NCBI GenBank assembly: GCA_963762145.1
Contig: CAVXJS010000007.1
Span: forward strand, 192,001-256,000
Direction: 5' to 3'
DNA length: 64,000 nucleotides
Source: an uncultured Candidatus Rokubacteria bacterium
GTDB lineage: Bacteria > Methylomirabilota > Methylomirabilia > Rokubacteriales > CSP1-6
Numbering within the stretch: the stretch's first letter is position 1; every line of letters starts with the position of its first letter. The notes below the pieces were generated by a model that was not told where the DNA came from, searched no databases, and saw only the letters and a program-made list of their open reading frames with translations. The translations under genes and the position numbers were made by a program. This document shows positions 7,134-49,550 of the stretch, one piece after another.

Positions 7134-7149
7134 GCGGCGAGGCCGCGCG

Positions 7150-10188: not shown

Positions 10189-10237
10189 GCGCTTTGCTAT
10201 ACTACCGGGGTCGTTCGTCGCTCCGAGGAGGTGCGCG

Positions 10238-10567: not shown

Positions 10568-11037
10568 AAGTCCTCGCGCTCCACCCCGAGAAGTGCACCG
10601 GCTGTCTGCGGTGCGAGCTGGCCTGCTCCTACATGCAGACCGGTCTCTTCCAGCCGTCCAAGTCGGTGATCCGGGTCTCGCCCTTCGAGGGTTACACGTC
10701 CTACGCGCCGTACACGTGCACCCAGTGCGCGGAGGGCTGGTGCATGACCGCCTGCCCGGTGGGAGCGATCCAGATCAACGCGGCGGGCGCCAAGGACGTG
10801 ATGGACGACACCTGCGTGGGGTGCAAGCTCTGTACGATCGCCTGCCCCTACGGCACCATGTTCTACGACGGCGACACCCAGAAGGCCTACAAGTGCAACC
10901 TCTGTGGCGGCGCGCCCGCGTGCGCCTCCGCCTGCCCGACCGAGGCGATCACCTTCGAGGACGTGGAGACGGCCGACTGGATCGGGGATTTCGCGGCCGA
11001 GCGCACCGCCCGCGTGCTCGCGGTGGAGGCCCGCTGA
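10564..11037 (+). CDS. 4Fe-4S polyferredoxin subunit (AorA-like)
   Basis: Four Cys clusters: CTGCLRCELAC, CTQC..CMTACP, CVGCKLCTIACP, CNLC..CASACP. Confidence 0.9.
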   Translation: MKVLALHPEKCTGCLRCELACSYMQTGLFQPSKSVIRVSPFEGYTSYAPYTCTQCAEGWCMTACPVGAIQINAAGAKDVMDDTCVGCKLCTIACPYGTMFYDGDTQKAYKCNLCGGAPACASACPTEAITFEDVETADWIGDFAAERTARVLAVEAR

Positions 11038-31481: not shown

Positions 31482-32824
31482 ATGCCGCCACGTTCGTCGG
31501 ATCGGCCGTTCATCGTGCAGCCCACCCCCTCGCGCATCGCGGAGGTCGAGCGCCTGGGTGACGAAATCGCCGAGCTGTCCGTTCACCTCGACGCCGCGAC
31601 CGCTCGCCTGCTCACGCTGATCCGCGAGTTCGACGCCCGCGGAGGCTGGGCCAACGGCTTCCGCTCCTGCGCCGAATGGCTCGCGTGGCGCGTGAGCCTC
31701 GACCTGGGCGCCGCCCGTGAGCGGGTCCGGGTCGCGCGCGCCCTCGGAACGCTGCCCGCCCTGGCCGAGGCGCTGGCCCGGGGAGATCTCTCCTACCCAA
31801 GGTCCGCGCCTTGACTTGGATCGCGACCCCGGAGACGGAAGTCCGCCTGCTCGCGGTAGGGCGTGCGGGGACGGCGGCGCATGTGGAGTGGCGCCGCTTC
31901 GACGGCCAGGCCGACGCGCGCGAGGCCACGCGGCAGCACGCGGGGCGGGCCCTGCACGTCCAGCGGGATGAGGACGGCACGGTTGTCCTCCGCGGGCGCC
32001 TGACCCCGGAAGTCGGCGCGCTGCTCCTGCGCGCCCTGGACGCCGCCCGCGAGACCTTGTACCAGGGCCACCGCGCCCCCGCGTCCGCTCAGCCGGTCGC
32101 GGACCCGACCGCGGAGGTCCCGACACGCCCTCAGCAGCAGGCCGACGCGCTGGCCCTGCTGGCCGAGACGGCACTGCATCAGGAGTTCGACCCGGGCGCC
32201 CCCGGGGAGCGGTATCAGGTGGTGGTGCACGTGGACGCCGCGGTCCTGACGGACACGGCCACCCCCGGCCAATCCGTGCTGGAGGAGGAGGTCCACGTTT
32301 CCGCGGAAACGTCACGGCGGCTCGCGTGTGACGCAAGCCGGGTGGTGATGCGGCACGACGCGGACGGCCGGGTGGTGGAAGTCGGCGCGCGTACGCGGAC
32401 GATTCCACCAGCACTGCGGCGGGCGTTACAGCATCGGGACAAGAGCTGCCGCTTCCCGGGCTGTAACGTCCGGATCGCCGAGGGACATCATGTGCGCCAT
32501 TGGGCCAAGGGCGGCCCCACGAAGCTCTCCAACCTCGCGTTACTCTGCCGCCGGCATCACCGCGCGGTGCACGAGGAGGGCTTCCAGCTCGAGCGACTCC
32601 CTGATGGCGCGCTCCAGTTCCGGCGGCCGGATGGCCGGCCGCTGCCCGACGTCCTGGCACCGCCGGCGGTACCGATCGACGCAGCGGGAACGCTCCGGGC
32701 GCAGAACGCCGCGCAGGGGCTCCAACTCCATGCGCGCACGGGGCTCGCCCCGTGGTACGGAGAGCGGCTGGACGTGCGCTGGGCGATCGACGTGCTACAT
32801 CCGCGGGCGAGGCGATCTAGCTGA
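31482..32824 (+). CDS. DUF222 / HNH endonuclease domain protein (frameshift near 31797)
   Basis: FRSCAEWLAWR, ARERVRVARAL, RRLACDA, RDKSCRFPGC...HHVRHW..GG.T..NLALLCRRHH. Confidence 0.85.
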
Positions 32825-32827
32825 AAA

Positions 32828-35572
32828 CTACGCCGCGGACGGCTTCTCGATGGGCGCGACGCGGCGCGCCACCGGCTTCACCAGCAGCTTCAGCACCACC
32901 GGCAGGACGATCAGCGCCGCCACGAGGCCGCAGGCGGAGCCCAGGGTCAGCAGGAGGCCCAGGCTGAAGATGCCCTGGTGGCTGGCGATCATGAGGCTGC
33001 CGAAGCCCACCATGGTGGTGATGCCGTTGAGCGCGACGCCCAGCACCGCGCTGCGGGCGACGAGCGGCCCGCCGTGGGGGCGGCCCTCGAGGTGGCTCAG
33101 GATCACGTTGAGGCCGAACTCGGCCGCGGTGCCGATGATGAGCGGCAGGCCCCAGATGTTGGCCAGGTTGAACTTGATGCCGAAGACGTGCATGAGGCCG
33201 ACGGTCCACAGGACGCCCAGCACCATCGGCACGAGGCCGAGCATGCTCTCCCGCATGCGGCGAATCATGAGGATGCTGAGGCCGCCCACGAGGACGAAGG
33301 CGTAGACGCTCCCGGTGAGGTAGGCGCGCTCCATCAGCAGGGTCGCCTCGTAGGTGATGATGGGCGGCCCGGTGATGTCGGGATCCACCGTGCGGAGATC
33401 GCGCACGAACTCGGCCGCGCCCGCCTTCTCCCAGATGTCCACCTTGGGATGGACCTGGATGAGGAAGCGGCCGTTCTCGCCGATGAACTTGCGCCGGAGC
33501 TCCTCCGGCACGTCCTTGATGGTCACGGAGGTGGGCTTCAGGTTGCGCTGGAGGGTGTAGAACTTGTTCACGAAGTCCCGGTAGAGCTGGGCCTGCAGGT
33601 AGTTCAGCGCCGCCTCGGCCGAGTCCCGGTTGCTCCGCGTGAGCAGGCGCTGCACCTCGATGGTCTTGTCACGTACCACCCGGATCTCCGCCGGCAGCTT
33701 GGCTCCCGCCTCGACCGCGACCACGTCGAAGCGCCGCTTGATGTCGGCCAGCGCCTGCTTGAGCCGGTCGAGGTCGACCGTGCTCGAGCGCCCGACGCGG
33801 ATCGGGGCCACCAGGGGGGCGAAGCTCTTGATCAGCTCGATCTTCTCGGGCTGGTCGTCGGGGATCACGCGCAGGACCGAGTCGGTCTCGGAGACCGACG
33901 GCAGCTTCTCGAACGCCGCCTGCCTGGCCCGCAGCTCTTCCAGGGATGAAGCGGACGACAGGGCGTTGAACCCGGAGTGGCCCGTGCTCGAGAGAATGCG
34001 CCGCTCCCAGGCCACCGACTCGGTGCCCTTGGCCTGCAGGTTGAGCACGTTGTAGTCGAAGCCGACGCGGGTCACCGCCCAGAGCGAGAACGCGGTGAGG
34101 ATCCCGGCGCCGATCAGCACGGTGCGCGGGTAGCCCACCACCCGATCCAGGAGCGGCACGCGGATGCGCTCGAGCTGGTGCGCCCGCGGCCGCTGTCCCC
34201 GCGGGCGGTCCGCGTGCCGGCGGTCCACCAGGACCAGGATCGCGGGGAAGAGCGTGATCATGCCCACCCAGGCGATCAGGATCGCGATGCCCGCGATGAA
34301 GCCGAGCTCCTGGATGCCGCGGAAGTCGGTGAGCATCAGGACGAAGAACGTTCCGGCCGCGGTCAGCGCGCCCGCCAGCATGCCGGGACCGGTGCGCGCC
34401 GCGGTGTGCTCGAGAGCCTCGCGCAGGCTCCGGCCCAGGAAGATCTCCTCCTCGTAGCGGAAGAGGTAGTAGATCCCGTAGTCGATGCCGATGCCGACCA
34501 CGATGGAGATGAACATCACCGAGAACAGGGTGAGATGTCCGACCGTGAGGGTGATCACGCCCATGGACCAGGCCAGGGTCACCGCGAGCACGCCCAGCAT
34601 CAGGAGCGGCTTGCCGACCCGCACGAAGGCCAGGGCCATGACGAGCAGGGTGAGGGCGAAGGCGAGCACGTCCGCGATGCTGCTGTCGTGGAAGGCGGCC
34701 GTCATCTCGTCGTTTGAGAGCGCGGGCACGCCGGTGACTCCCGCCTGCACGTTCGGGAAGGCAGGCCGCAGCTTGGCGACCGCCTCGCGAATCGTCTCGA
34801 TGGCGGCCTGGTCGCCGATGAAGCTGCCCTTCTCGCTGGGCGGCGTCTCCACCAGGATGAAGAGCAGGCTCTTGTCATCGGAGAGGAAGTAGCCCGCGTC
34901 GTCGGGCGGGTCCTCGCCGAACGAGAAGAGGGTGCCCCAGGGCGAGCGGTAGGGCGCGGGGCGCTCGAGGCGGCTCGCCATCTGGTCGAGGAGCACGCGC
35001 AGGAACCGCGTGTCGACCGGCAGGTCCTTGTCCTGGAGGCCGATGTCGAAGAGGTTGGAGACGAAGGCGGCCGCCATCTGGGTGTTCACGCCCTCGAGCA
35101 GACGAGCGAGGCTCGGGTCACCCGCGAAGCTCTCCATGAACTCCTGGTGGTCGAAGATCTTGTCGCGGATCTCGCGCAGCTCGGGGGTCGTGAGATAGAG
35201 GAGCTGGCGCCCCTCGAACCGCTTGGGGTCGATCCGGTAGGCGACCCGCTGGAACTTGACCGGGGCCTCCCGGAGCGCCTCGGTGAGGCGGGCCGCGTAG
35301 GCGCGCGCGCCCTCGAAGGAGCCGGCCTCGACCACCACCACGATGTCCTCGAGCTCGCCGAACTCCTTCGCGTACTCGGTGTAGCGGGTCACGTAGCCCG
35401 CGCTCTGGGGCAGCAGTGCGCGGGTGGAGGTCTTGAAGGTGAGCGCGTGCGCGGTGTAGGCGATGGCGACCGCCGCGAGCAGGAGGGAGACCCCGACCGT
35501 GATCGCGGGCCGGCGGCAGGACAGACGCACTACCCGGCGGAGAACACGACCGGTGCGGGAAATCGCGATCAT
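32828..35572 (-). CDS. hpnN: Hopanoid-associated MMPL/RND transporter
   Basis: Two RND halves, GVTGVPAL..DE, GIGIDYGI, TTMVGFGSL; located in hpn cluster. Confidence 0.85.
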   Translation of the reverse strand: MIAISRTGRVLRRVVRLSCRRPAITVGVSLLLAAVAIAYTAHALTFKTSTRALLPQSAGYVTRYTEYAKEFGELEDIVVVVEAGSFEGARAYAARLTEALREAPVKFQRVAYRIDPKRFEGRQLLYLTTPELREIRDKIFDHQEFMESFAGDPSLARLLEGVNTQMAAAFVSNLFDIGLQDKDLPVDTRFLRVLLDQMASRLERPAPYRSPWGTLFSFGEDPPDDAGYFLSDDKSLLFILVETPPSEKGSFIGDQAAIETIREAVAKLRPAFPNVQAGVTGVPALSNDEMTAAFHDSSIADVLAFALTLLVMALAFVRVGKPLLMLGVLAVTLAWSMGVITLTVGHLTLFSVMFISIVVGIGIDYGIYYLFRYEEEIFLGRSLREALEHTAARTGPGMLAGALTAAGTFFVLMLTDFRGIQELGFIAGIAILIAWVGMITLFPAILVLVDRRHADRPRGQRPRAHQLERIRVPLLDRVVGYPRTVLIGAGILTAFSLWAVTRVGFDYNVLNLQAKGTESVAWERRILSSTGHSGFNALSSASSLEELRARQAAFEKLPSVSETDSVLRVIPDDQPEKIELIKSFAPLVAPIRVGRSSTVDLDRLKQALADIKRRFDVVAVEAGAKLPAEIRVVRDKTIEVQRLLTRSNRDSAEAALNYLQAQLYRDFVNKFYTLQRNLKPTSVTIKDVPEELRRKFIGENGRFLIQVHPKVDIWEKAGAAEFVRDLRTVDPDITGPPIITYEATLLMERAYLTGSVYAFVLVGGLSILMIRRMRESMLGLVPMVLGVLWTVGLMHVFGIKFNLANIWGLPLIIGTAAEFGLNVILSHLEGRPHGGPLVARSAVLGVALNGITTMVGFGSLMIASHQGIFSLGLLLTLGSACGLVAALIVLPVVLKLLVKPVARRVAPIEKPSAA

Positions 35573-35596
35573 GAAGCGAGAACGACGACGGCGCGG

Positions 35597-36670
35597 TTAG
35601 TCGGCGCCGTTGATGAACGTTTCCAGTCGCGTGTGCGCCAGCTCGTCCGACCACTGCTCGGGCGGCGACTTCATCAGGTAGGCCGAGGGCGCGAGCAGGG
35701 CCCCCTTGATGCCACGGTCCATCGCGATCTTGCAGGAGCGGATCGCGTCGATCACCACGCCCGCCGAGTTGGGCGAGTCCCACACCTCGAGCTTCAGCTC
35801 CACGTTGATGGGCTGGTCCCCGAAGCTGCGGCCCTCCAGGCGGATGTGCGCCCACTTCCGGTCCTCGAGCCACGGCACGTAGTCGCTCGGGCCGATGTGG
35901 ATGTTGTCGTCGGCCATGTCGTGGGCGACCTGGGAGCGGACCGCGTCCGTCTTCGAGATCTTCTTGGAGTGCAGGCGCTGACGCTCCAGCATGTTGTAGA
36001 AGTCGGTGTTGCCGCCCACGTTGAGCTGGCTGGTCCGCTCGAGCCGCACCCCGCGGTCCATGAAGAGCTTGGTCAGGATGCGGTGGACGATGGTGGCGCC
36101 CACCTGCGACTTCACGTCGTCGCCCACCACCGGCAGCCCGCGGTCCTCGAAGCGGCGGCGCCAGTACTCTTCCCGGGCGATGAAGACCGGGATGCAGTTG
36201 ACGAAGCCGCAGCCCGCGTCGAGCATCTGCTCGACGTACCACTTGGTGGCCATCTCGCTGCCCACCGGCAGGAAGTTGACCACCACGTCGGTGCGGGTCT
36301 CCCGCAGGATGCTCTTGATGTCGGCGGTGCTGCCGGGGGCCTTGGTGATGATCTGGGAGAGGTAGTGGCCCAGGCCGTCGTGGGTCATGCCTCGCTGCAC
36401 CGGCACTCCCAGGCGGGGGACCTCCGCGAAGCGGACCGTGTTGTTCGGCTTGGCCGCGATCGCCTCGCCCAGATCCAGGCCCACCTTGTTGGCGTCGATG
36501 TCGAAGGCGGCCACGAACTCGATGTCGCCGACGTGATAGCCGCCGAGCCGCGGGCGCATGAGGCCCGGGATGAAGCCGTCGTCGGGCACACCCTTGTAAT
36601 AGTGGACACCCTGGACCAGCGCGGATGCACAGTTACCGACCCCGACCACCGCCACGCGAACAGATCCCAC
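35597..36670 (-). CDS. ino1: myo-inositol-1(3)-phosphate synthase
   Basis: [36 protein letters not shown]. Confidence 0.95.
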
Positions 36671-36760
36671 GGCCGCCTCCTCAGCGCTTCGTCACCGCGA
36701 CATGCGGCGACGCGTCAGACCCAGAGAGTCTAGCACACGCGCCGGGCGCCGGCCCCAGAC

Positions 36761-37732
36761 CTAGGCCGCCGGGCGGTCGGCGCCCAGCACCAGGAACCCC
36801 ACGACGGCCCACGTGATCTCGCGCAGGCGCCGTACGAGCACGTAGGTGAGGCCCGCGGTCGCCCCCAGGCCGAAGGCCTCGAAGAAGACCACGTAGCCGC
36901 CCTCGAGCGCCCCGAGGGAGGCGGGCACCATGAAGCTGGCGAACTTCACGCCGCTCGCGAAGGATTCGACGATCAGGGCGATGCCTAACGGCGCCGGCGT
37001 CCCCAGCAGGCTCAGCACCAGGTAGATCTCGAGGCCGCCGGTGGCCCAGGCCACCGCGTGGACCACCGCGGAAGCGACGAGCCGTCGCCGGCGGTGACGG
37101 TAGAGCGCGGCCAGCGCACGGTCCAGGTCGCCCAGGCCCTGCTCGAAGCGGCCGGTCCCGCCCACGCCCACGCGCTTGGCGAGCCGGCCGAGCAGCCGTC
37201 CGCCGCCGCCGAGCGCGCCGCTGGCCTGCACGAGCGCGAAGCCGCCGACCGCGAGCACCTCCACCACCAGCAACCCGGACATGACCGGCAGGAGCCGGCC
37301 CTCCGGAGGCGTCGGGAGGGCTCTGGCCGCCAGGAGGCCGAGGGCGAGGAAGATCACCTGGCCGGCGACCACCGTGGTCTTGTCGGCGATCACCGAGACG
37401 AAGCCGTCGAGCAGCGGGAGCCGCGGCCGCAGGAGGTAGGCCTTGAGCGGATCGCCTCCGACCGACATCGTGGGCGTGGCCAGGCTCACCGCCTCCCCGG
37501 CGAGGCGGGCGCGGAAGAGGAGGAGAAAGGGCACCGGCGTGGGCAGGAGGAGCTGCCAGGCGAGCGTGTCCACCGCGGCGGCCAGCACGTACGGGAAGGC
37601 GAGCACGATCGGCAGCCGCCAGCCGAGCGTGACGAACGAGGACCAGATGGCGGCGGGACCGATCTGCGCGACGAGATACCCCACCAGGGCCAGGCCGGTG
37701 ACCACCAGGAACGGTCGGACCCAGCGGGACAC
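36761..37732 (-). CDS. Lysylphosphatidylglycerol-synthase/flippase-like membrane protein (HpnL-like)
   Basis: RLAGEAV..ATP..VGGDPLK, PASLGALEGG, LVRRLRE. Confidence 0.8.
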   Translation of the reverse strand: MSRWVRPFLVVTGLALVGYLVAQIGPAAIWSSFVTLGWRLPIVLAFPYVLAAAVDTLAWQLLLPTPVPFLLLFRARLAGEAVSLATPTMSVGGDPLKAYLLRPRLPLLDGFVSVIADKTTVVAGQVIFLALGLLAARALPTPPEGRLLPVMSGLLVVEVLAVGGFALVQASGALGGGGRLLGRLAKRVGVGGTGRFEQGLGDLDRALAALYRHRRRRLVASAVVHAVAWATGGLEIYLVLSLLGTPAPLGIALIVESFASGVKFASFMVPASLGALEGGYVVFFEAFGLGATAGLTYVLVRRLREITWAVVGFLVLGADRPAA

Positions 37733-38904
37733 TAGGCGCGCGGCCTCCAGGCGCGGGCGAGATAGCCCACCCAGTAGGCCTGCGAGCCGACCGCCACGAG
37801 CGCCGCGACCACGAAGACGAGCGACGGCGCCAGCCATCGCAACGCCACGAAGGACAGGAGCAGGACGTAGAAGACGTCGCGGCTGGTGACGTGCGTGAGC
37901 AGGCCGCCCGCGGGGGGCCGGGCCTCGATCCCGGCGGGAAGATAGCGCGTGACGACCGCGCTCAGCGTCACCCCGATCGCGGCCAGGAGCCCGACCACGA
38001 CCATGCCCGGCCCGCCGGAGCTGACGCCCAGGCCGAGGACGATGCCGGCCTGGATGATCGTGTCGACCGCCCAGTCGAGGGTGGCTCCCAGGCGCGACTC
38101 CTGGAACGTCAGGCGGGCGATCTCGCCGTCGGCATGGTCCACGATGCACGCGGCGGTGTAGGCCAGCACGCCCAGCAGGGCGCTCGCGGTGGTCGCGTGC
38201 CAGAAGCACCAGATGGCGAGCAGGCCGATCGCCAGGCTCACGAGGCTCACGTGATTCGGCGCCACCGGCGTGCGCGCCAGGAGCCGGCTGATCCGGCGCG
38301 AGCAGGGCCGGTGCAGGTGCCGGTCGATGCCGGTATCTACCGCGATGCCCAGCGTGGTCTCGAGCGCCGCCTCGGCGCGGGCCAGGTCCGAGATCTCGCG
38401 CACCGTGACGTGAGGTCCCGTCGCCTCGCGGGCCGGGGCGCCCGCGTCCGCCAGGCGGCGCGTGAGCTGCGCGCCGACCGGCCGCCCCGCCGCCAGCTCC
38501 GGCCAGAGCTCGGCGACGAGCGGCGCGGGGACGAGCGCCACCGGCGCGGAGCCGCCGGCCGACGGCGCCAGCACCGCGCCCCGCGGCGCGGGCGCGGCGA
38601 ACAGGCCGGCGAGGGCGCTCACGTGGATCAGCGAGGAGGCGGGCAGGAGCAGCCACGCGGCCGGCTCCTCCGCGGGGGCGGGGGCGCCCGGGGTGAGCCA
38701 GCGGACGGTGGCCGCGAGCGCGGGCATCCGGCGCAACGCGCGATCGGCCTCCGCGTCGTGCAGCGTCGACGGCACCGCGATCAGGGAGGCGCCGGCGCGG
38801 AGCGCCGCGACCATGGCGCGGACGACGAGGGGGCGCCCGGCGACGACGGCGGCGGCTAGAGGTCGCGCCGCCCCGTCCGGGAGATAGAGCAGGGCGCGGA
38901 CCAC
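37732..38904 (-). CDS. CDP-alcohol phosphotransferase with a degenerate NTP-transferase-like N-terminus
   Basis: PNHVS and DHADGEIARL...LGATLDWAVD signature; N-terminal VAGRPL. Confidence 0.85.
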   Translation of the reverse strand: MVRALLYLPDGAARPLAAAVVAGRPLVVRAMVAALRAGASLIAVPSTLHDAEADRALRRMPALAATVRWLTPGAPAPAEEPAAWLLLPASSLIHVSALAGLFAAPAPRGAVLAPSAGGSAPVALVPAPLVAELWPELAAGRPVGAQLTRRLADAGAPAREATGPHVTVREISDLARAEAALETTLGIAVDTGIDRHLHRPCSRRISRLLARTPVAPNHVSLVSLAIGLLAIWCFWHATTASALLGVLAYTAACIVDHADGEIARLTFQESRLGATLDWAVDTIIQAGIVLGLGVSSGGPGMVVVGLLAAIGVTLSAVVTRYLPAGIEARPPAGGLLTHVTSRDVFYVLLLSFVALRWLAPSLVFVVAALVAVGSQAYWVGYLARAWRPRA

Positions 38905-38905
38905 A

Positions 38906-39649
38906 TCAGCGCTCGAGCCGCTCGATGCCCGGGAGGATCTCGGTCTCGGCCCGGCGCAGGTCCTCCGCGAAGTCGACCTCCGTCCACGGCAGGCCCGTGA
39001 CGTCCACCCAGCCTACCGGCACGCGCGCGAGGAGCTCGTGCAGGGCGTCCTCGTACTCGTTCTCCCCGCCCGTCTCCTCGATGGATTCCTCCAGGAGGCG
39101 CACGTACTCCGGAGCGTGGGCCGCGTCGCACTTGAAGAATCCGACTCCCTCGCCGATCACGTCCCACCTCTGGGGCACGACCTTCGTGCCGAGCGCGATG
39201 ACCCGATCGTCCACCGTGTAGAGCTTGACCTCCTCGCCGGTGTCCTGGAAGGCGCGATCCAGCAGCAGCGCGCTCGGCGCGGGCGCGGCGATGAGCCGGG
39301 TCAGGAAGCGGGCGGGGAAGAGCACGTCCGCGTCCATGATCAGGGTACGGTCGGCGCTGCGCATCGTCTCGCGGGCGCACCAGAGCGAGAGCATCGAGCC
39401 CTTCCGATAGCCCGGGTTCTCGACGTAGCGGATCCGCATCGCGCCGCGCGCGGCGCCCGCGGCCCGGCGCACCTGATCCTGGCAGTGGCCGACCACCAGC
39501 ACCGACTCCTCCACTCCGCACGCCGCGAGCGCGTCCAGCATGCGATCGAGCAGCGAGCGGCCGCCCACCTCCAGCAGAGCCTTGTGGGTGGTGTCGCTGA
39601 TCGGCGCGAGCCGACGCGCCACCCCGGCGACGAGGATGACAGCCTTCAC
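38906..39649 (-). CDS. Phosphocholine/phosphonate/inositol-phosphate cytidylyltransferase family
   Basis: KAVILVAGVARRL...KALL, MDADV, WTEVDFAEDL. Confidence 0.85.
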   Translation of the reverse strand: MKAVILVAGVARRLAPISDTTHKALLEVGGRSLLDRMLDALAACGVEESVLVVGHCQDQVRRAAGAARGAMRIRYVENPGYRKGSMLSLWCARETMRSADRTLIMDADVLFPARFLTRLIAAPAPSALLLDRAFQDTGEEVKLYTVDDRVIALGTKVVPQRWDVIGEGVGFFKCDAAHAPEYVRLLEESIEETGGENEYEDALHELLARVPVGWVDVTGLPWTEVDFAEDLRRAETEILPGIERLER

Positions 39650-40836
39650 CGGATCGCGGGCCCGCCGAGGCCGGAGCGGAACCGATCGCGGATCTCTTCC
39701 GGGGAGTACGGGATGCGGGGTGCCGGCTGCTCCTCGCCGGTCACGCGGGCGAGGATGAAGCTCGGTCCGCCGCCCGCGACCGCGGTGGCCACCGCGGCGT
39801 GCAGCTCGTCGGCGCCCGCGACCGCGGTCACGCGCTCGTAGCCGGCGGCGCGCGCGAGGTGGTGGAGGCCGACCGCGCGCGAGGGAGAGGCCTGGCCGCC
39901 GGTCGATCCGTAGAGCGCGTTGTCGAACACCACGTGCGTCAGGTTGGCCGGGCGGGCGCGCCCCATCACCGGGCCGCCGCCGATCATCGGCAGGATGCCC
40001 AGGCTCATGAGCAGGTTGCCGTCGCCGTCCCAGACCACGGCGGGGCGCGCCGGCGCCGCGAGCGCCACGCCCAGGCCGATCGCGGAGGCCATGCCCATCG
40101 AGCCGATCATGTAGAAGTTCTCGATCCGGTCCTTGACCGCGAACGACTCGCGACAGATGTAGCCGTTGGCGTGAACCACGGGCTCGGTCGTCAGCGCGGA
40201 GACGGCGGCGCGCAGGGCCTCGAAGCGGGAGATGCGGGGGGCGGGGGTGGGGTCGGCCCACGGCGGCTCTGAGCGGCGCCCTTTATTTTTGTATTCGCTC
40301 GGCTCGCCTTCGGCTTCACCTCGCCCTGCTACTGCCCCATGATCTTCCGTGTCGAGGATCCCCGGCGGGAGGAGGAGGGCGACCGGCTGGCTCAGGCGCT
40401 CCGACTCGGACCGGCCCCACGCGATGTCATCCGCGATGGTCGTCGCGGAGAGCACGCGGTGCGGAATCCGGATCATCTCGAGCAGGCCCGGCGAGATCTC
40501 CCCCATCAACAGGTGCTCGGGCGCGTCCCGGCCCGCGTGGCCGCGCCACGTCACCAGCAGCAGCGCCGGGAGGCGGTACATGAGCGACAGCGAGACCAGC
40601 GCGTTGAGGCTCGTGCCGAGGCCCGAGTTCTGCATGAGGACCATCGGGCGCCGCCCGGCCAGCCAGGCCCCCGCGGCCAGGCCCACCGCCACGTCCTCGC
40701 GCACCGCCGGCACGTAGGGCAGGCGCGGGTGCGTCTCCAGGGTGGCGATGAGGCCCGAGATCATCGAGCACGGCACGCCGGTGAAAAAGTCGTAACCCTG
40801 CGTCTCGAGCTGCGCCGCGAACGCGGCGCCGTTCAC
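39646..40836 (-). CDS. TPP-dependent phosphonopyruvate/sulfopyruvate decarboxylase (fused alpha-beta)
   Basis: FFTGVPCS, MQNSGLG, WRG, FYMIGSMG, DGDG...N, YGSTGGQ. Confidence 0.88.
   Translation of the reverse strand: MNGAAFAAQLETQGYDFFTGVPCSMISGLIATLETHPRLPYVPAVREDVAVGLAAGAWLAGRRPMVLMQNSGLGTSLNALVSLSLMYRLPALLLVTWRGHAGRDAPEHLLMGEISPGLLEMIRIPHRVLSATTIADDIAWGRSESERLSQPVALLLPPGILDTEDHGAVAGRGEAEGEPSEYKNKGRRSEPPWADPTPAPRISRFEALRAAVSALTTEPVVHANGYICRESFAVKDRIENFYMIGSMGMASAIGLGVALAAPARPAVVWDGDGNLLMSLGILPMIGGGPVMGRARPANLTHVVFDNALYGSTGGQASPSRAVGLHHLARAAGYERVTAVAGADELHAAVATAVAGGGPSFILARVTGEEQPAPRIPYSPEEIRDRFRSGLGGPAIR
40292..40325 (-). repeat. Dispersed 34-bp repeat, copy 2, in frame inside the decarboxylase linker
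   Basis: 32/34 identical to 14321-14354; followed by an A-rich tract. Confidence 0.8.
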
Positions 40837-41465
40837 GGCTTCTTCTTCCCGCCCTTGTCCTCGGCGAGCAGCTCGTCCTGCTTGTTGCGGAGCTTCGAGA
40901 CCAGCTCGTTGTAGGACGTGGTCTGGATGATCTTGTTGAACTGGGTACGGTAGTTCGACACGAGGCTCACGCCCTCGATGCTGACGTCATAGACGAGCCA
41001 CCGGTCGGCCCGCTTGAGCAGCCGGTAGTCCACCGGGACCTCGGTGCCGTTCTTGGTCACGATGCGGGTGGACACGGTGGCGAGGTCGCCGTCCGCGCGC
41101 TCGGCGGTGTACTGGATCTTCTCGCCCCCGTACGTCTCGATCTTGGAGATGTAGGAGCGCTCGAGCAGGTCGGCGAACAGGCTCACGAACTCGGCCCGCT
41201 GGGCTTCGGAGAGGGGCTGCCAGTGCCGGGCCAGGGACCGCTTCGCGATCTCGTTGAAGTCGAAGATCTCGTTGGCGATCCGACGGACGGCCGCCCGGCG
41301 ATCGTTCTGGTTCCCCCTGAGCGCCGGATCGTCGAGGGTCTTGAGGACCCGCTCCACCGCGCCCTTGAGCTGGTCGGTGGGCACTCCCGCCGCCGCGGGC
41401 CCCGCGCCGAGCCCGATCAACAGCGCGCCCGCCAGCACCATCGCCCCCATGCGAAGCCAGTTCAT
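40833..41465 (-). CDS. mlaC: MlaC/HpnM periplasmic lipid-binding protein
   Basis: Signal peptide, FDFNEIAKRSL, VYDVSIEGVSLVSNYRTQF. Confidence 0.9.
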   Translation of the reverse strand: MNWLRMGAMVLAGALLIGLGAGPAAAGVPTDQLKGAVERVLKTLDDPALRGNQNDRRAAVRRIANEIFDFNEIAKRSLARHWQPLSEAQRAEFVSLFADLLERSYISKIETYGGEKIQYTAERADGDLATVSTRIVTKNGTEVPVDYRLLKRADRWLVYDVSIEGVSLVSNYRTQFNKIIQTTSYNELVSKLRNKQDELLAEDKGGKKKP

Positions 41466-41490
41466 CGAATACCTCCCTGGATGAGTGGGA

Positions 41491-41931
41491 CTAGACCTTG
41501 CCGAAGATGTACTTGGAGAGCAGCTCCTCGATGTCGACCGGCGGCTCCACCTCGCGGATCCGGCCGTTGGGCTCGATGATCTTGTCCGACCCGCCCGGGC
41601 TGATGCGCACGTACCGCTCGCCGATCAGCCCCTTGGTCTTGATGGAGGCGATCGAGTCGTCCTGGAGCTTGATGCCGGGCTGGATGACCATGATCACCCG
41701 CGCCTGGTAGTCCTGCAGGAGGATCTTGTCCACCCGCCCGATCTCGACGCCCGCGATCTCGATGGCGGACCCGGCCTTGAGGCCTCCCACCGACGGGAAA
41801 TCGGCGCTGATCACGTAGCCCCGGTTGCCCAGGAGGTCGACGCGCCCGAGCTTGACCGACATCCAGCCGAGCGCGAGGAGCCCGACGAGCACGAAGATGC
41901 CGACGCCCAGTTCCAGTACGGAACGCTTCAT
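41491..41931 (-). CDS. mlaD: MlaD MCE-domain protein
   Basis: ELGVGIFV, GGLK.G..IEIAGVEIGRV, IKTKGLIGERY. Confidence 0.9.
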   Translation of the reverse strand: MKRSVLELGVGIFVLVGLLALGWMSVKLGRVDLLGNRGYVISADFPSVGGLKAGSAIEIAGVEIGRVDKILLQDYQARVIMVIQPGIKLQDDSIASIKTKGLIGERYVRISPGGSDKIIEPNGRIREVEPPVDIEELLSKYIFGKV

Positions 41932-42698
41932 TCTGGTCTCCCGGCTAAGCGCCGTTGCGCCGCAGGCACCATCTCGATGTCCCCGCGGATGAACTGCTGG
42001 ACGATGGGGTTCGCCGAGGCGCGCACCGCCTCCGGCGTCCCGACCTCGACGATCGTACCCTCGTGGAGCATGGCGACCCGGTCCGCGATCTCGAAGATCT
42101 CCGGGATCTCGTGGCTGACCATGACCGCGGTGAAGCGGAACTTGCGGTGCAGCTCCACGACGAGGTGATGGATGGTATTGACCAGGATCGGATCGAGGCC
42201 GGTGGTCGGCTCGTCGAAGAAGACGATCTCGGGCTCGATGATCAGGGCCCGCGCGATGGCGACGCGCTTGCGCATGCCGCCCGAGATCTCCGCCGGGTTC
42301 TTCTGTCCCATGCCGGAGAGCCCGACCTGCGCGAGCTTCTCCTTCACCCGGCTCCGGATCTCCTTGGGCGTCAGGCGGCTCTTCTCCCGGAGCGGGAAGG
42401 CGACGTTCTCGGCCACCGACATGGAGTCGAAGAGGGCGCCCCCCTGGAAGACGACCCCGTAGCGCTCGCGCACCCGGTCCAGCTCGCTCCCGCGCAGTCG
42501 GGTGATCTCGGTTCCGTCGACCGCGACGCTGCCCGAGTCGGGGCGGAGCAGCCCGATCAGATGCTTGAGCAGGACCGACTTGCCGCCGCCGCTCCGGCCG
42601 ATGACGACCATGATCTCGCCGGTGGCGACGTCGAGATCGACGCCGCGCAGGACCGGCTGGCTGCCGAAGCTCCTGTACAGGCGCTGGATCCGGATCAC
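41928..42698 (-). CDS. mlaF: MlaF ABC ATPase
   Basis: GRSGGGKS, ISGGMRKRV, FDEPTTGLD. Confidence 0.92.
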   Translation of the reverse strand: MIRIQRLYRSFGSQPVLRGVDLDVATGEIMVVIGRSGGGKSVLLKHLIGLLRPDSGSVAVDGTEITRLRGSELDRVRERYGVVFQGGALFDSMSVAENVAFPLREKSRLTPKEIRSRVKEKLAQVGLSGMGQKNPAEISGGMRKRVAIARALIIEPEIVFFDEPTTGLDPILVNTIHHLVVELHRKFRFTAVMVSHEIPEIFEIADRVAMLHEGTIVEVGTPEAVRASANPIVQQFIRGDIEMVPAAQRRLAGRPE

Positions 42699-43501
42699 GG
42701 CAGGACGGACCCGAGGAAATAGTCCCAGACCAGGATGAGGATGGACGTCAGGACCACCGCCTGGGTGGTGGCGCGCGCGACGCCCTCGGCGCCGTGCCCG
42801 CAGTGGAAGCCCTTGTAGGTGCAGACCCAGGGCACGATGATCCCGAACGAGATCGCCTTCCAGTACCCGGTCATGAGGTCGGACATGGTGACGAAGGTCT
42901 TCATCTCGCCGAAGTACGTGCCGGGAGAGAGCCCGAGGAGCTCGACCCCGACCAGGTAGCCGCCGAAGATGCCCACCACGTCGAAGAGCGCGGTCAGCAG
43001 CGGAAAGGTGATCAGCCCCGCCACCAGGGCCGGCGACACCAGGTACCGCATGGGGTTGAGCGCCATGACCTGGAGCGCGTCGATCTGCTCCGTGATCTTC
43101 ATGATGCCGATCTCGGCGGTCAGCGCCGAGCCGGCCAGGCCGGTGACGAACACCGCGCACAGCACCGGGCCCAGCTCCCGGATCAAGGACAGGGCCACCG
43201 CGGGGCCCAGATAGGCCTCCGAGCCGAACCGCGACAGGGTGAGGAAGATCTGCAGCCCCAGCACCATGCCGGTGAACGCCCCGGTCAGGATGACGATGGT
43301 CAGCGACCGGAAGCCGATGAAGTGGATGCGGTCGACCAGCCGTCCGAGCTTGAAGGGCGGGATGAAGACGTATCCGACCGCCTGCGCGAAGAACTGGCCG
43401 AATCGGCCCAGCGCCGAGACGAGGTCGAGGACCATCCCCCCGAGTGCCGCGATCGGACGAAGCGGCGCCGGCCATAGTTCGCGCGTGGGCGACGAAAACA
43501 T
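42695..43501 (-). CDS. mlaE: MlaE ABC permease
   Basis: IRELGPVL, AEIGIMKITEQIDAL, GAEGVARATT. Confidence 0.92.
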   Translation of the reverse strand: MFSSPTRELWPAPLRPIAALGGMVLDLVSALGRFGQFFAQAVGYVFIPPFKLGRLVDRIHFIGFRSLTIVILTGAFTGMVLGLQIFLTLSRFGSEAYLGPAVALSLIRELGPVLCAVFVTGLAGSALTAEIGIMKITEQIDALQVMALNPMRYLVSPALVAGLITFPLLTALFDVVGIFGGYLVGVELLGLSPGTYFGEMKTFVTMSDLMTGYWKAISFGIIVPWVCTYKGFHCGHGAEGVARATTQAVVLTSILILVWDYFLGSVLP

Positions 43502-43543
43502 CGCCCGATACTAGCACAGAGCCCCGTCAACTCGCCGCCGTCC

Positions 43544-43572
43544 TTGAAAAAAATCGGTCAGTTCCGTATCGT
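43544..43572 (+). promoter_or_regulatory. Sigma70-like promoter for the rightward hpn operon
   Basis: TTGAAA-N17-TATCGT in the divergent intergenic region. Confidence 0.55.
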
Positions 43573-43596
43573 GAATGCGTGGCGCACCCGCACTCG

Positions 43597-44367
43597 ATGG
43601 ACACGGTCTGGTCGGTCGTGAGCCTCCTCGGCGGCACCTTCGTGCTGCGACCGTACGTGGTCGGCTTCCTGGCCTTCTTCCTGGTCGCGGCCACGCGGGA
43701 TCTCGGCCGCGCGGGGGCCCTCGGGTTCCTGGTCTGGGGCTTCCTCGTCGCGCTGGTGGCCGAGCTCTCGTCGACGCGCGTGGGGCTGCCCTTCGGCCTC
43801 TATCACTACACCGGAGCGACCGCGGGCGCGGAGCTGTTCATCCGGAACGTCCCGTTCTTCTCGCCTCTGTCGTTTCCGTTCCTGGCCTATGCCTCCTTTT
43901 GCCTGGCCCGGTGGGCCCTGGGCCCGGGCTGGGCCGGGAGCCGCGCAGCCCGTCTCCGCACGGTCGCTCTCGCGGGCCTGCTGATGACGCTGCTGGACGT
44001 CGTCATCGATCCGCTCGCGGTGCGGGGCGAGCTCTGGTTCCTCGGCCATGTCTTCATCTACCCGGAGGGCGGGCTCTACTTCGGGGTCCCGCTCTCGAAT
44101 TTCGTCGGCTGGTGTCTGGTCGGCTTGGCCACCGTCGGGGGCTACGTCAACGTGGCCGGGGACGGACGGATGGGCTCGCCCCGCCTGGGGATCGCGCTCT
44201 ACTACGGGGTCCTGGCGGTGAACCTGGCCGTGACGGTGTGGACCGGCGAATTACTCATTGCCGCCGCGGGAATAGTGGTTCAGTCGGGGGTCTTTCTGCT
44301 ACTGTACACTGTCAATCGGGTCTCGCCCGGTCGATGGTCGGCCGGGCGGCTGTCTGTCACCTCCTGA
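43597..44367 (+). CDS. CruF-like (carotenoid 1,2-hydratase family) membrane protein
   Basis: E...G.PFG.Y.Y, DVVIDP, YFGVPLSNFVGW motifs. Confidence 0.8.
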   Translation: MDTVWSVVSLLGGTFVLRPYVVGFLAFFLVAATRDLGRAGALGFLVWGFLVALVAELSSTRVGLPFGLYHYTGATAGAELFIRNVPFFSPLSFPFLAYASFCLARWALGPGWAGSRAARLRTVALAGLLMTLLDVVIDPLAVRGELWFLGHVFIYPEGGLYFGVPLSNFVGWCLVGLATVGGYVNVAGDGRMGSPRLGIALYYGVLAVNLAVTVWTGELLIAAAGIVVQSGVFLLLYTVNRVSPGRWSAGRLSVTS

Positions 44368-44388
44368 CGCTGAAAGGGTTCGCGAGAC

Positions 44389-45405
44389 ATGGGCGTTCCG
44401 GTATCTCAGATGTGGACGGTGGCGACGTACGTCCTCGGCCAGAAGCTGGCCGGGCGCAAGCGCTATCCGCTCGTTCTGATGCTCGAGCCGCTCTTCCGCT
44501 GCAATCTGGCCTGTGCCGGATGCGGGAAGATCCAGTACCCGGCCCAGATCCTCAAGAAGCACCTGAGCATCGAGAAATGCCTGGCCGCGGTGGAGGAGTG
44601 CGGCGCGCCGATGGTCAGCATTCCGGGTGGGGAGCCGCTCATGTACCCGGAGATCGACCGGCTGGTGAAGGAGCTGGTGAAGCGGAAAAAGTACGTGTAT
44701 CTGTGCACGAACGCCATCCTGCTGAAGGAGAAGCTCGACCTCTTCACCCCGTCGAAGTACCTCTCGTTCAGCGTCCACATGGACGGCCTGCGCGAGGAGC
44801 ACGACGAGGCGGTGTGCCGGGACGGCGTCTACGACCAGGCGGTGCCCGCGATCCGCGAGGCGGTGGCGCGCGGCTTCCGGGTGACGACGAACAGCACGCT
44901 GTTCGACGGGGCCTCGCCGCTGCGGATGCGCGAGTTCTTCGACGAGATGATGACGCTGGGCGTCGAGGGCATGATGATCTCCCCGGGCTACAGCTACTCG
45001 AAGGCCCCCGATCAGGAGCACTTCCTGCTGGAGGCCCGCACCCACGAGCTCTTCACCACGATGCTCTCGAAGCCGAAGAAGCGCTGGCGCTTCAACCAGT
45101 CGCCGCTCTTCCTTCGCTTCCTGATGGGCAAGAAGGACTTCGAGTGCACCCCGTGGGGCAACCCGACCTACAACATGTTCGGGTGGCAGCGCCCGTGCTA
45201 TCTGCTCCAGGAGGGCTACACCAAGACCTTCCGGGAGCTGATGGACACCACCCCCTGGGAGAACTACGGCAAGAAGAGCGGCAACGAGAAGTGCCGGGAC
45301 TGCATGGTGCACTGCGGGTACGAGGCCACGGCCGTGGACTACACGTTCAGCTCGATGAAGGGCTTCGTGGAGACGGTCGGGGTCACGCTGACCGGCAAGC
45401 TCTAG
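44389..45405 (+). CDS. hpnH: Adenosyl-hopene transferase (radical SAM)
   Basis: LMLEPLFRCNLACAGCGKI, CTPWGNPT, CMVHCGYE. Confidence 0.95.
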   Translation: MGVPVSQMWTVATYVLGQKLAGRKRYPLVLMLEPLFRCNLACAGCGKIQYPAQILKKHLSIEKCLAAVEECGAPMVSIPGGEPLMYPEIDRLVKELVKRKKYVYLCTNAILLKEKLDLFTPSKYLSFSVHMDGLREEHDEAVCRDGVYDQAVPAIREAVARGFRVTTNSTLFDGASPLRMREFFDEMMTLGVEGMMISPGYSYSKAPDQEHFLLEARTHELFTTMLSKPKKRWRFNQSPLFLRFLMGKKDFECTPWGNPTYNMFGWQRPCYLLQEGYTKTFRELMDTTPWENYGKKSGNEKCRDCMVHCGYEATAVDYTFSSMKGFVETVGVTLTGKL

Positions 45406-47470: not shown

Positions 47471-47690
47471 GGTGGGGTATCGAGCGCGGCGCCCACACCC
47501 AAACGGAATCGGGGAGCGCGGCATGACGTGGGGTGGAGAGCGCGGCGTGACGTGGGGTACCGAGCGCGGCGCCTACACGCCAAACGGAACTGGGGGAGTG
47601 CGGGGGCCATTTCTGGGCCCCCGCATATGAAGAGCTTTTAAGAACTAGACGGATGACAGCACAGACAGCCCAGACGACAGCACAGAAGGA
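47440..47690. repeat. Mosaic tandem repeat, GC hairpin and short direct repeats
   Basis: AGCGCGGC x5 (47459, 47483, 47515, 47539, 47563); CCAAACGGAA x3 (47442, 47499, 47580); 10-bp stem 47599-47625; GACAGC(A/C)CAGA x3 (47655-47686). Confidence 0.85.
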
Positions 47691-47699
47691 TACGACGGC

Positions 47700-48548
47700 A
47701 TGAACGCCGGACAGTTCGTCTCGCGTCTGACCCGCAAGAGCCGCTCGAACTTCTTCTACGCGTTCCTCTGCCTCCCCCGGGCCCAGCGCGAGGCGATCTA
47801 CGCGTGCTACGCCTTCTGCCGCATCGTGGACGACGCGGTGGACCTGGTGTCCGACCGCGAGAAGCAGCGCGCGGAGCTCGGACGCTGGCGCGAGGAGATC
47901 GCGCGCGTCTACGAAGGGCGGCCCGAGCATCCGGCGGGCCAGCGACTGCAGGTGGCGGTCCGGCAGTTCCCGATCCCGCGCGCCGCGCTCGAGGAGATCA
48001 TCGCGGGAGTGGAGATGGACATGGACCATCCCACCTACGAGACCTTCGACACGCTGTATCCCTACTGCTATCGGGTGGCCTCCGCGGTGGGGCTCTGCTG
48101 CATCGAGATCTTCGGCTACTCGGACCCGCGGACGCGCGAGTACGCGGTGAACCTGGGGGTCGCGCTCCAGCTCACCAACATCCTCCGAGACGTCCAGGTG
48201 GACGCGCGCATCGGGCGCGTCTACCTCCCGCAGGCCGACCTGCGGCGCTTCGGGGTGGCCGCGGAGGACCTGGCGCAGGGGCGGTACACGCCCGCCTTCG
48301 TCGAGCTCATGACCTTCGAGGCATCGCGCGCCCACGAGTACTACCAGCGCGCGTGGGCGGCGCTGCCGGCGGCCGACGCGCGGCGGCTGTTCGCGGCCGA
48401 GATCATGGGCCGTACCTACTTCGCGCTGCTGCGGGCCATCGAGGCGCGGCGCTTCGACGTCTTCACCCGTCGCGTTGCCCTGTCCACCCCCCGCCGTCTC
48501 GCCATCGCCTTCCGCTGCTGGCTCGGTGCCCGCCTGGCCGTCTCGTGA
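47700..48548 (+). CDS. hpnD: Presqualene diphosphate synthase (squalene/phytoene synthase family)
   Basis: SNFFYAF, YAFCRIVDDAVD, YCYRVAS, QLTNILRDV, GRVYLP. Confidence 0.85.
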   Translation: MNAGQFVSRLTRKSRSNFFYAFLCLPRAQREAIYACYAFCRIVDDAVDLVSDREKQRAELGRWREEIARVYEGRPEHPAGQRLQVAVRQFPIPRAALEEIIAGVEMDMDHPTYETFDTLYPYCYRVASAVGLCCIEIFGYSDPRTREYAVNLGVALQLTNILRDVQVDARIGRVYLPQADLRRFGVAAEDLAQGRYTPAFVELMTFEASRAHEYYQRAWAALPAADARRLFAAEIMGRTYFALLRAIEARRFDVFTRRVALSTPRRLAIAFRCWLGARLAVS

Positions 48549-49549: not shown

Positions 49550-49550
49550 C

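Follow-up and report, generated by a model that had tools for sequence, protein, structure and literature searches.

A predicted phosphonopyruvate decarboxylase is maintained without PEP mutase in a hopanoid-locus operon of Rokubacteria

What does a predicted phosphonopyruvate decarboxylase do beside an inositol-phosphate synthase, in a genome where no enzyme forming the carbon-phosphorus (C-P) bond can be found? The question is raised by a minus-strand operon in a 64,000-nucleotide stretch of DNA (the window), positions 192,001 to 256,000 of contig CAVXJS010000007.1 (C7) in the uncultured Rokubacteria (Methylomirabilota) assembly GCA_963762145.1. This metagenome-assembled genome (MAG), here G000, spans 6.26 Mb in 25 contigs and is 88% complete with 5.4% contamination; the G+C content of the window is about 71%. 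The chances seem to us evenly balanced that the operon is a lipid head-group module of Kennedy type for an aminoethylphosph(on)ate, one whose C-P-forming step was lost. Below, other genomes, loci, contigs and proteins carry numbers prefixed G, L, C and P.

The operon is real and conserved. Related Rokubacteria loci preserve the order of its genes, more than chance would give, and five genes form its centre:

39646..40836, minus strand: DEC, a fused alpha+beta decarboxylase predicted to depend on thiamine diphosphate (ThDP); Pfam TPP_enzyme_N (PF02776) 38.8 bits, TPP_enzyme_C (PF02775) 45.2 bits
38906..39649, minus strand: NT, a putative PntC/LicC-like cytidylyltransferase with a GTG start; Pfam NTP_transf_3 62.9 bits
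37732..38904, minus strand: CDPOH, a predicted two-domain CDP-alcohol phosphotransferase of AF2299 type; Pfam CDP-OH_P_transf 43.5 bits
36761..37732, minus strand: HpnL-like, flippase-like membrane protein; Pfam LPG_synthase_TM 81.8 bits, TIGR03476 HpnL 155.9 bits (cut-off 195.65)
35597..36670, minus strand: ino1, a predicted myo-inositol-phosphate synthase (MIPS); Pfam Inos-1-P_synth 123.6 bits (cut-off 27), TIGR03450 (mycothiol-type model) 522.5 bits (cut-off 638)

An earlier reading made from the letters alone (the sequence-only reading) had described these five as a tightly packed chain. The packing is as it claimed, with all five genes in place and the junctions read directly, and Pfam matches bear out its domain-level identities. 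A 4-bp GTGA overlap joins the stop of an upstream hpnM-like gene to the start of DEC, and another joins the DEC stop to the NT start. A single spacer base (TGA T GTG) separates NT from CDPOH, and CDPOH overlaps the hpnL-like gene by 1 nt (TAGTG) if the start is the GTG at 37732, an ATG at 37837 being the alternative. Spacers of 90 nt, with GAGGAGG, and of 24 nt lie on either side of ino1, towards the hpnL-like and an hpnN-like gene respectively.

By its phylogenetic company, DEC is a predicted orthologue of phosphonopyruvate decarboxylase (Ppd), not of ComDE. A single chain holds its Pyr and PP domains, both ThDP-binding. Hidden Markov model (HMM) score alone leaves it ambiguous between the two: it falls under the curated NCBIfam cut-offs for ComD (119.8 against 147.95 bits) and ComE (159.3 against 221.5 bits), and its Ppd score is weighed further below. 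A first homologue search returned close relatives only, at an identity of at least 76%. A search of 1.84 billion cluster representatives leaves the cluster of DEC isolated: the closest full-length sequences beyond it share 38-47% identity. Of the 150 nearest 50%-cluster representatives listed, 44 were scanned and 43 of these exceed the Ppd cut-off (TIGR03297, 312.5 bits); some Ppd representatives near DEC are fused to an AEP aminotransferase (AepZ), to a PEP-mutase-like (PepM) domain or to Fe-ADH, where AEP is 2-aminoethylphosphonate and PEP phosphoenolpyruvate. A FastTree phylogeny of the C-terminal domain joins 11 Ppd representatives to a subclade (97%) of Rokubacteria, Scalinduaceae, Binatia and Nealsonbacteria sequences, with 98% support. 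Outside this clade falls a verified Methanothrix ComE (232.5 bits against 221.5; its ComD partner 207.9 against 147.95). The nearest solved relative in the PDB is a "putative Ppd alpha/beta" (9iz3). The sequence-only reading could not tell Ppd from ComDE and had proposed this phylogeny as a check; in the tree, with its one ComE, DEC groups with Ppd. Its phosphonate idea holds up in this respect, and also in that sister orthologues adjoin a PEP-mutase(-like)::nucleotidyltransferase fusion. G000 has four further split alpha/beta pairs resembling Ppd/ComDE, all far under the cut-offs (C7:325438-326432, C14:389132-390090, C21:711285-712201 and C10:183276-184233), the C7 pair coming after a PotA/PhnT2-like ABC ATPase and permease.

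PEP mutase, which would supply the substrate of a Ppd, was not found in G000. A profile search with TIGR02320 (cut-off 319.55 bits) gave a best match of 150.5 bits that scores higher as PrpB/methylisocitrate lyase (303 bits), and tblastn with both PepM types found nothing above 40% identity. With PepM absent from the locus and from the rest of G000, de novo C-P bond formation is not encoded. PepM is likewise missing from the nearest relative, G205, from G019 and G123, both 100% complete, and from two variant C genomes (variants are listed below). We considered the PrpB-like gene at C7:336 kb as a hidden PEP mutase and rejected it (303 bits as PrpB against 151 as PEP mutase); it carries KKCGH, which we take to be a lyase signature. 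The sequence-only reading had asked for a pepM search and had named, as one outcome that would refute it, a genome without pepM together with a decarboxylase that groups with ComDE. Profile search and tblastn of this 88%-complete genome bear out the first half of that outcome, and the phylogeny goes against the second.

About half of the DEC-bearing genomes sampled from the phylum share this gap. We searched a sample of 201 genomes with TIGR02320 and, separately, with DEC, and cross-tabulated the results; these tallies include four genomes flagged as unpublished (G029, G058, G101 and G152), which the later comparisons leave unused. Full-length DEC orthologues (E <=1e-120, 57-88% identity) occur in 76 of the 201. 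A PepM or PepM-like match of 182-397 bits, some cut by contig ends, accompanies DEC in 39 of these 76 genomes and lies within about 2 kb of it on the same contig in 35 of the 39 (the exceptions are G082, G064, G110 and G200). In the remaining 37, G000 included, the profile finds only PrpB-like matches, at roughly 100-165 bits; this group takes in G019, G123 and G068, each 100% complete, as well as G032 (99%).

DEC is nevertheless under purifying selection in genomes that lack PepM and is not decaying. Its frame is open in all 21 PepM-less sequences used. Pairwise Nei-Gojobori dN/dS is 0.18-0.30 (dS 0.23-0.39) within the five-member PepM-less subclade that holds the window, 0.13-0.23 among seven sequences from loci with an in-locus PepM-like gene (variant A below) and 0.21-0.45 among those of variant C. 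Neighbouring genes in loci of the window's type have medians of 0.20 (NT), 0.25 (hpnM), 0.30 (hpnL), 0.42 (CDPOH) and 0.11 (ino1). Intact frames and dN/dS well below 1 imply that DEC has a selectable role without PepM. The alignment shows nothing that would indicate an altered active site: 14 PepM-linked DECs share 145 invariant columns, of which 105 do not vary in the 21 PepM-less sequences either; the other 40 mostly vary in few sequences, and no column is differently fixed between the two sets.

Sister loci show what the window may have lost. We mapped twelve window proteins, the PepM-like protein and NT1, the nucleotidyltransferase part of the PepM fusion, on 58 loci plus two further ones; seven loci were dropped as the same place fetched twice, and the counts below are of distinct loci.

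Variant A, 11 loci: hpnM-[PepM-like::NT1]-DEC-NT-CDPOH-hpnL-ino1-hpnN
Variant B, 9 loci, the window among them: the order of A without PepM-like::NT1
Variant Bx, 1 locus: B without CDPOH
Variant Bxx, 1 locus (G019): B without NT and CDPOH
Variant C, 7 loci: hpnM-DEC-ino1-hpnN
Variant Cx, 3 loci: as C, but an LPG_synthase_TM gene separates DEC from ino1
Variant D, 3 loci: DEC-PepM::NT1 outside the hopanoid locus

All 11 hopanoid loci that contain the PepM-like gene also contain NT. One variant B locus, L029, retains an 81-residue N-terminal PepM-like remnant at 96% identity, so at least one form of variant B arose by deletion. The Rokubacteria DECs form one clade (98%) in which variants A, B and Cx interleave (quick IQ-TREE of 52 sequences, midpoint root), a pattern that fits repeated loss. 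We rejected DEC as an obligatory core gene: in two genomes with variant D, the hopanoid loci (G137:C2, L122; G144:C9, L123) read hpnM-NT-CDPOH-...-ino1-hpnN and lack it.

The in-locus PepM-like protein departs from canonical PEP mutase. In variant A it is a single PEP_mutase::NTP_transf_3 protein of 554 residues. According to Rice et al. (2019, PMC6697681), PEP mutase (Ppm) is defined by the motif EDKXXXXXNS. In the variant D enzymes, at 372 bits, the motif is EDKLFPKTNS; those of variant A read EDNVFPKKCS (EDT in one) and score 272-298 bits, under the cut-off, and a Polyangiaceae homologue reads EDNIFPKRCS. The EDN(V/I)FPK(K/R)CS fusion is found at L019:8337-10000 (P0270) and also in L021, L022, L026, L030, L058, L059 and L042. 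It occurs in Rokubacteria and one Polyangiaceae MAG, always adjoining a Ppd-type gene. In L053 (G186:C17, 8900-13700) PepM-like, NT1 and CDPOH are each broken across frames and are intact in L019 and L022; the breaks are likely assembly indels of a long-contig MAG, not pseudogenes.

Related modules reach beyond the phylum. A Scalinduaceae locus (L043) holds, in this order, DEC-alpha, DEC-beta, a class V aminotransferase, NT, CDPOH and a HAD hydrolase, 6 kb from hpnH and an hpnG-like phosphorylase, with a canonical PepM elsewhere in that genome. A Binatia locus (L045) runs hpnM-like, hpnN-like, DEC-alpha/beta, class V aminotransferase. Five loci at 82-94% identity to the Rokubacteria operon (L017, L020, L023, L024 and L038) are recorded as Dormiibacterota, Deferrimicrobiaceae, Nitrosotalea, Verrucomicrobiia and Gemmatimonadales MAGs; their contigs were probably binned wrongly.

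NT appears to resemble the AEP cytidylyltransferase PntC more than inositol-1-phosphate cytidylyltransferase (IPCT), by a modest margin. Its best PDB match is 6pd1, the PntC-AEP transaminase Tde1415 of Treponema denticola (53.5 bits), followed by the Archaeoglobus fulgidus IPCT at 41.3 (2xme) and 39.5 bits and by LicC at 36.3 bits; among its NCBIfam matches there is no PntC family to compare with. In Tde-PntC, according to Rice et al., the AEP amine is contacted by Glu104 and Glu196, each of which is replaced by Asp in LicC. The aligned residues of NT are D106 (in MDADVLF) and E200 (in NEYEDAL), kept in 22 of 22 NT-type sequences, Scalinduaceae and Polyangiaceae included; four PepM-fused NT1 sequences differ, reading LYSDILF. 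IPCT (2xme, 4mnd) has Met opposite D106, and the EYE segment of NT aligns poorly with it. Among 13 longer homologues, one is a DEC::NT fusion (P0271, 87% identity), three are NT::Aminotran_5 fusions (40-45%) resembling the architecture of Tde1415, and six are NT::CDP-OH transferase fusions.

CDPOH is, on sequence and model, a CDP-alcohol phosphotransferase of AF2299 type, its activity being predicted. An extra N-terminal domain of about 190 residues, nucleotidyltransferase-like, precedes the transmembrane catalytic domain, whose motif D256-x2-D259-G260-x2-A263-R264...G273...D277 does not vary across 13 aligned sequences; D281 hardly varies. AF2299 (4o6m) is the best PDB match at 63.7 bits, ahead of IPCT-DIPPS at 34.6. 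An AlphaFold model from an alignment of 13 (pLDDT 85.5, pTM 0.81) has AF2299 as its top Foldseek match over both domains (TM 0.75 by target) and also superposes over both on IPCT-DIPPS. The N-domain gives weak fold matches to GlmU, MurU, IspD and MobA (E 0.01-0.04), no Pfam match and no recognisable nucleotidyltransferase signature at sequence level. Elsewhere, G068, a variant C genome, carries pairs of CDPOH-like and LPG_synthase_TM-like genes. One, its transferase AF2299/DIPPS-like, stands in a second hopanoid-type cluster (L103, G068:C43, about 5600-12150) next to hpnJ and an hpnN paralogue at 50% identity, which again ties such a pair to hopanoid genes.

A head-group precursor could come from outside. 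The contig of the window also encodes, 100 kb downstream, an AEP:pyruvate transaminase of PhnW type (C7:355321-356379; L111:10276-11421), which scores 545.9 bits on PRK13479 and passes the TIGR02326 and TIGR03301 cut-offs. Three kb upstream of it, PhnA-like (phosphonoacetate-hydrolase-like) pieces in two reading frames suggest a frameshift or assembly error. AEP transaminase is present in five of five genus members tested, above the cut-off in four and split over two frames in G186. The idea that PhnW/AepZ tracks NT-CDPOH was rejected, given its presence in two of four variant C genomes tested as well as in all five genus members. Uptake of AEP from soil is thus a possible source of the G000 head group, but it would not need DEC.

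The operon extends further than the chain first described. Ten consecutive minus-strand genes run mlaE-mlaF-mlaD-hpnM-like-DEC-NT-CDPOH-hpnL-like-ino1-hpnN-like, adding four genes upstream and one downstream; the added genes and two divergent hopanoid genes are:

42695..43501, minus strand: MlaE-type permease, first gene of the chain, its position conserved in related loci; Pfam MlaE 257.8 bits
41928..42722, minus strand: MlaF-like ABC ATPase, start codon uncertain; Pfam ABC_tran 114.1 bits on 41931-42722
41491..41931, minus strand: MlaD; TIGR04430 141.8 bits (cut-off 135), with a Pfam MlaD match
40833..41465, minus strand: MlaC/HpnM-like periplasmic lipid-binding protein; Pfam MlaC 170.4 bits, TIGR03481 HpnM 95.5 bits (cut-off 160.1)
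32828..35572, minus strand: HpnN-like RND/MMPL lipid transporter, closing the chain; TIGR03480 HpnN 578.7 bits (cut-off 751.85), Pfam MMPL and sterol-sensing domain
44389..45405, plus strand: hpnH, adenosyl-hopene transferase, divergent; TIGR03470 543 bits (cut-off 225.05)
47649..48548, plus strand: hpnD, presqualene diphosphate synthase; TIGR03465 327.9 bits (cut-off 278.6)

A promoter/terminator scan found no terminator-like site on the minus strand from 32000 to 44500, which is weak evidence. The divergent side carries a CruF-like gene, ispH and the true hopanoid genes hpnH and hpnD, both above their cut-offs and within 7 kb of the locus of the HpnL/HpnM/HpnN-like genes. Between hpnD and ispH lies a Zn-dependent alcohol dehydrogenase (49542-50582, plus strand; 154.6 bits as the scyllo-inosose 3-dehydrogenase IolM, cut-off 450), a gene also conserved near hpnD in L053. 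At the other edge, directly downstream of the hpnN-like gene, an open reading frame with DUF222 and HNH endonuclease domains (31721-32824, plus strand) may be a mobile-element gene.

These parts suggest an operon that would build and export an envelope lipid from within a hopanoid gene neighbourhood. DEC would act as the phosphonopyruvate decarboxylase of the lineage. NT would activate a small aminoalkyl phosph(on)ate, most likely AEP, as its CMP conjugate, and CDPOH would move the head group onto a membrane alcohol, possibly diacylglycerol, a hopanoid polyol or an inositol lipid. The LPG_synthase_TM-like protein would then flip the product, and the HpnN-like, MlaC-like and MlaFED proteins would carry it outwards. 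In sister genomes, the PEP-mutase-like::nucleotidyltransferase fusion between hpnM and DEC would complete the phosphonate pathway; in G000, either the head-group precursor would have to be taken up or DEC would have to use another 2-oxo acid. Gene content and order, orthology, the lack of PepM and selection on DEC are observed; the direction of transport, like the substrates and the acceptor, is inferred.

In this scheme ino1 is most simply a separate neighbour, probably feeding a PIP-synthase-like enzyme encoded elsewhere for ordinary phosphatidylinositol (PI) synthesis. G000 has seven CDP-OH transferases. Five of the six besides CDPOH could be classified, two as PgsA-like, two as PssA-like and one, at C14:197306, as PIPS/AIPS-like (163.7 bits, cut-off 180, and 147.2 bits, cut-off 170); the seventh is a short match on C9. 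ino1 adjoins the hpnN-like gene in all 26 distinct loci that reach that far, and the pair persists in loci without NT and CDPOH (seven C, three Cx and one Bxx). No ino1 lies near the NT-CDPOH modules of Scalinduaceae and Polyangiaceae. The place of ino1 in the operon, on the simplest reading, reflects a common envelope-lipid theme, not a common cytidylyltransferase. The sequence-only reading had both input branches converge on one cytidylyltransferase and one transferase; the PntC/LicC-like character of NT, the retention of ino1 without NT and CDPOH and the separate PIPS-like gene all speak against that.

A considerable list of points weighs against an aminoethylphosph(on)ate module. Lacking PepM, G000 does not make phosphonopyruvate, the named substrate of DEC, and the upkeep of DEC under selection fits another substrate better than a leftover. 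C-P bond formation by the sister PepM-like enzymes is assumed: they lack the EDKXXXXXNS motif and score 291.8 bits against 319.55. DEC itself reaches 284.3 bits on the Ppd profile (cut-off 312.5), about equal to its summed ComD and ComE scores (119.8 + 159.3), and the C-terminal-domain tree took in a single verified ComE. For NT, the NCBIfam model that scores best is NF041135 (IPCT/DIPPS; 80.5 bits, far under its cut-off of 580), and in the PDB matches PntC leads IPCT by little (53.5 against 41.3 bits). DEC must also do something apart from the NT-CDPOH route, since variant C genomes retain it and have no NT orthologue (no matches in G068 and G032, only distant ones in G052, G090 and G019). 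MIPS, an NTP transferase, a CDP-alcohol transferase and an LPG-synthase-like protein together are also the make-up of the CDP-inositol cluster proposed in Bacteroides vulgatus (Heaver et al. 2022, PMC9246714). The HpnL, HpnM and HpnN labels all fall under curated cut-offs, hence "-like", and the genome is incomplete and partly contaminated (88% and 5.4%).

A Kennedy-type CDP-inositol route, the inositol branch of the sequence-only reading, is the main rival, if an unlikely one. NT would be an inositol-1-phosphate cytidylyltransferase, CDPOH would move phosphoinositol to diacylglycerol, a hopanoid polyol or inositol phosphate (giving a product like di-myo-inositol phosphate), and DEC would be an unrelated passenger. 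Beyond ino1 in the same operon, an adjacent flippase-like gene and the same four families in the Bacteroides alternative cluster, it draws on profile and fold matches. Next to the 80.5 bits of NT, CDPOH scores 55.9 bits as archaetidylinositol-phosphate synthase and 52.7 on NF041135, and Foldseek ranks IPCT-DIPPS (4mnd) fifth for CDPOH (TMq 0.68). These scores are far under their cut-offs (580 for NF041135, which neither NT nor CDPOH approaches, and 180 for archaetidylinositol-phosphate synthase), and NT matches PntC better, with the IPCT Met opposite D106 and the poorly aligned EYE segment. Fusions of NT homologues to class V aminotransferase and to DEC, NT-CDPOH modules in Scalinduaceae and Polyangiaceae without ino1 nearby, the persistence of ino1 without NT and CDPOH and the PIPS-like gene of G000 tell against it too. 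A hybrid, in which CDPOH would use CMP-AEP to attach the AEP group to inositol phosphate, or to a PI lipid through its inositol, and so link ino1 to the phosphonate genes, is the least probable reading. It would account for ino1 and phosphonate-type genes sharing an operon, and the solved relatives of CDPOH include DIPPS, whose acceptor, going by NCBIfam and PDB names, is inositol phosphate. The separable histories of ino1-hpnN and NT-CDPOH oppose it, nothing in the analysis points to an inositol-phosphonate ester, and no such compound was met in our literature searches, none of which was aimed at it.

The PepM-less state invites three further readings, all improbable. An oxygen-bridged or other analogue route, such as 3-phosphohydroxypyruvate to phosphoglycolaldehyde, phosphoethanolamine, CDP-ethanolamine and an ethanolamine-phosphate lipid, would need DEC without PEP mutase, and we find it rather doubtful. 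It agrees with purifying selection on DEC in the 37 of 76 PepM-less genomes, with the constraint on NT and CDPOH there and with the conserved amine-contacting acidic residues of NT. We know of no enzyme of the DEC family that uses 3-phosphohydroxypyruvate, which counts against it, as do the lack of any DEC column differently fixed between PepM-linked and PepM-less sets and the retention of DEC in variant C without an NT orthologue. LicC, a relative of NT, does have measurable phosphoethanolamine activity (Table 1 of PMC6697681). Equally doubtful is a broader version in which a Ppd-type DEC acts on a different phosphorylated or sulfonated 2-oxo acid. In about half of the DEC-bearing Rokubacteria, G000 among them, it would join a transaminase, the PntC-like NT and the AF2299-type transferase in a de novo route, as yet undescribed, that yields an aminoethyl head group activated with CDP/CMP; a hopanoid polyol or another lipid of the outer membrane would receive this group, and the HpnN-like/MlaC-like system would export the product. 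Slightly less probable still is decay, with DEC a functionless remnant in G000 of a phosphonate pathway that was lost. The absence of PepM, the deletion remnant in L029, the frequency of partial gene sets and a slightly higher DEC dN/dS in PepM-less clades (0.18-0.30 and 0.21-0.45 against 0.13-0.23) would suit decay; intact frames in 21 of 21, dN/dS well below 1 at dS up to 0.39 in an all-PepM-less subclade, constraint equal to that on neighbouring genes and the kept translational coupling to hpnM and NT would not.

An aminoethylphosph(on)ate module in this setting would matter beyond one genome. Bacterial lipid phosphonate head groups are predicted from genomes, and their attachment is little understood. 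The cluster, from an uncultured soil phylum, connects a module of Ppd/PntC type with a CDP-alcohol phosphotransferase of the membrane, with a flippase-like protein and with hopanoid-associated export; similar neighbourhoods occur in Scalinduaceae and Binatia. Counts of ppd or pntC as markers of phosphonate biosynthesis would overcount in Methylomirabilota. Two puzzles stand out: a Ppd orthologue maintained without PepM, and a sister-locus PepM-like protein with an EDN...CS motif. Our searches of the literature on hopanoids with inositol or phosphonate, on Rokubacteria, on Ppd/ComDE structure and on AF2299 found no description of the cluster.

Set against known systems, the operon is a variation on phosphonyl-tailoring/Kennedy logic in a hopanoid and lipid-transport locus, in a copy without PEP mutase. 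The phosphonyl tailoring (Pnt) pathway comprises Ppm, Ppd, an AEP transaminase and the cytidylyltransferase PntC (Rice et al.). The window resembles it in the Ppd-type decarboxylase adjoining an NTP_transf_3 cytidylyltransferase and in the two acidic residues that NT shares with Tde-PntC, and sister loci carry PEP_mutase::NTP_transf_3, the commonest Ppm architecture given in that paper. It differs in the missing Ppm of G000, in the EDNVFPKKCS of sister enzymes against EDKXXXXXNS, in an operon without a transaminase, in predicted transfer by a membrane CDP-alcohol phosphotransferase and in its hopanoid/Mla/RND lipid-transport setting.

The alternative inositol-lipid cluster of B. vulgatus (Heaver et al.), itself proposed and unconfirmed, likewise brings together MIPS, a protein with an NTP-transferase domain and a CDP-alcohol phosphatidyltransferase, with an LPG-synthase-like gene close by. 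Unlike it, the window operon has no HAD hydrolase, has a PntC-like NT translationally coupled to a Ppd-type decarboxylase, and has relatives that keep ino1 without NT and CDPOH. AF2299 and IPCT-DIPPS of A. fulgidus (4o6m, 4mnd) share with CDPOH a cytoplasmic nucleotidyltransferase-like domain and, in six helices, a CDP-alcohol phosphotransferase domain that carries the complete catalytic motif. CDPOH is only 17-22% identical to them and reaches 52.7 of 580 bits on NF041135; its N-domain has no Pfam match, and a separate, active-looking NT gene precedes it. The candidate transport genes HpnL, HpnM and HpnN of a recent preprint (bioRxiv 10.1101/2025.07.29.667474), whose main text makes no mention of phosphonate, CDP, cytidylyl, thiamine, decarboxylase or inositol, have counterparts here in LPG_synthase_TM-like, MlaC-like and RND genes beside hpnH and hpnD. 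The preprint treats these families mainly in Pseudomonadota, and the three genes of the window fall under the NCBIfam cut-offs.

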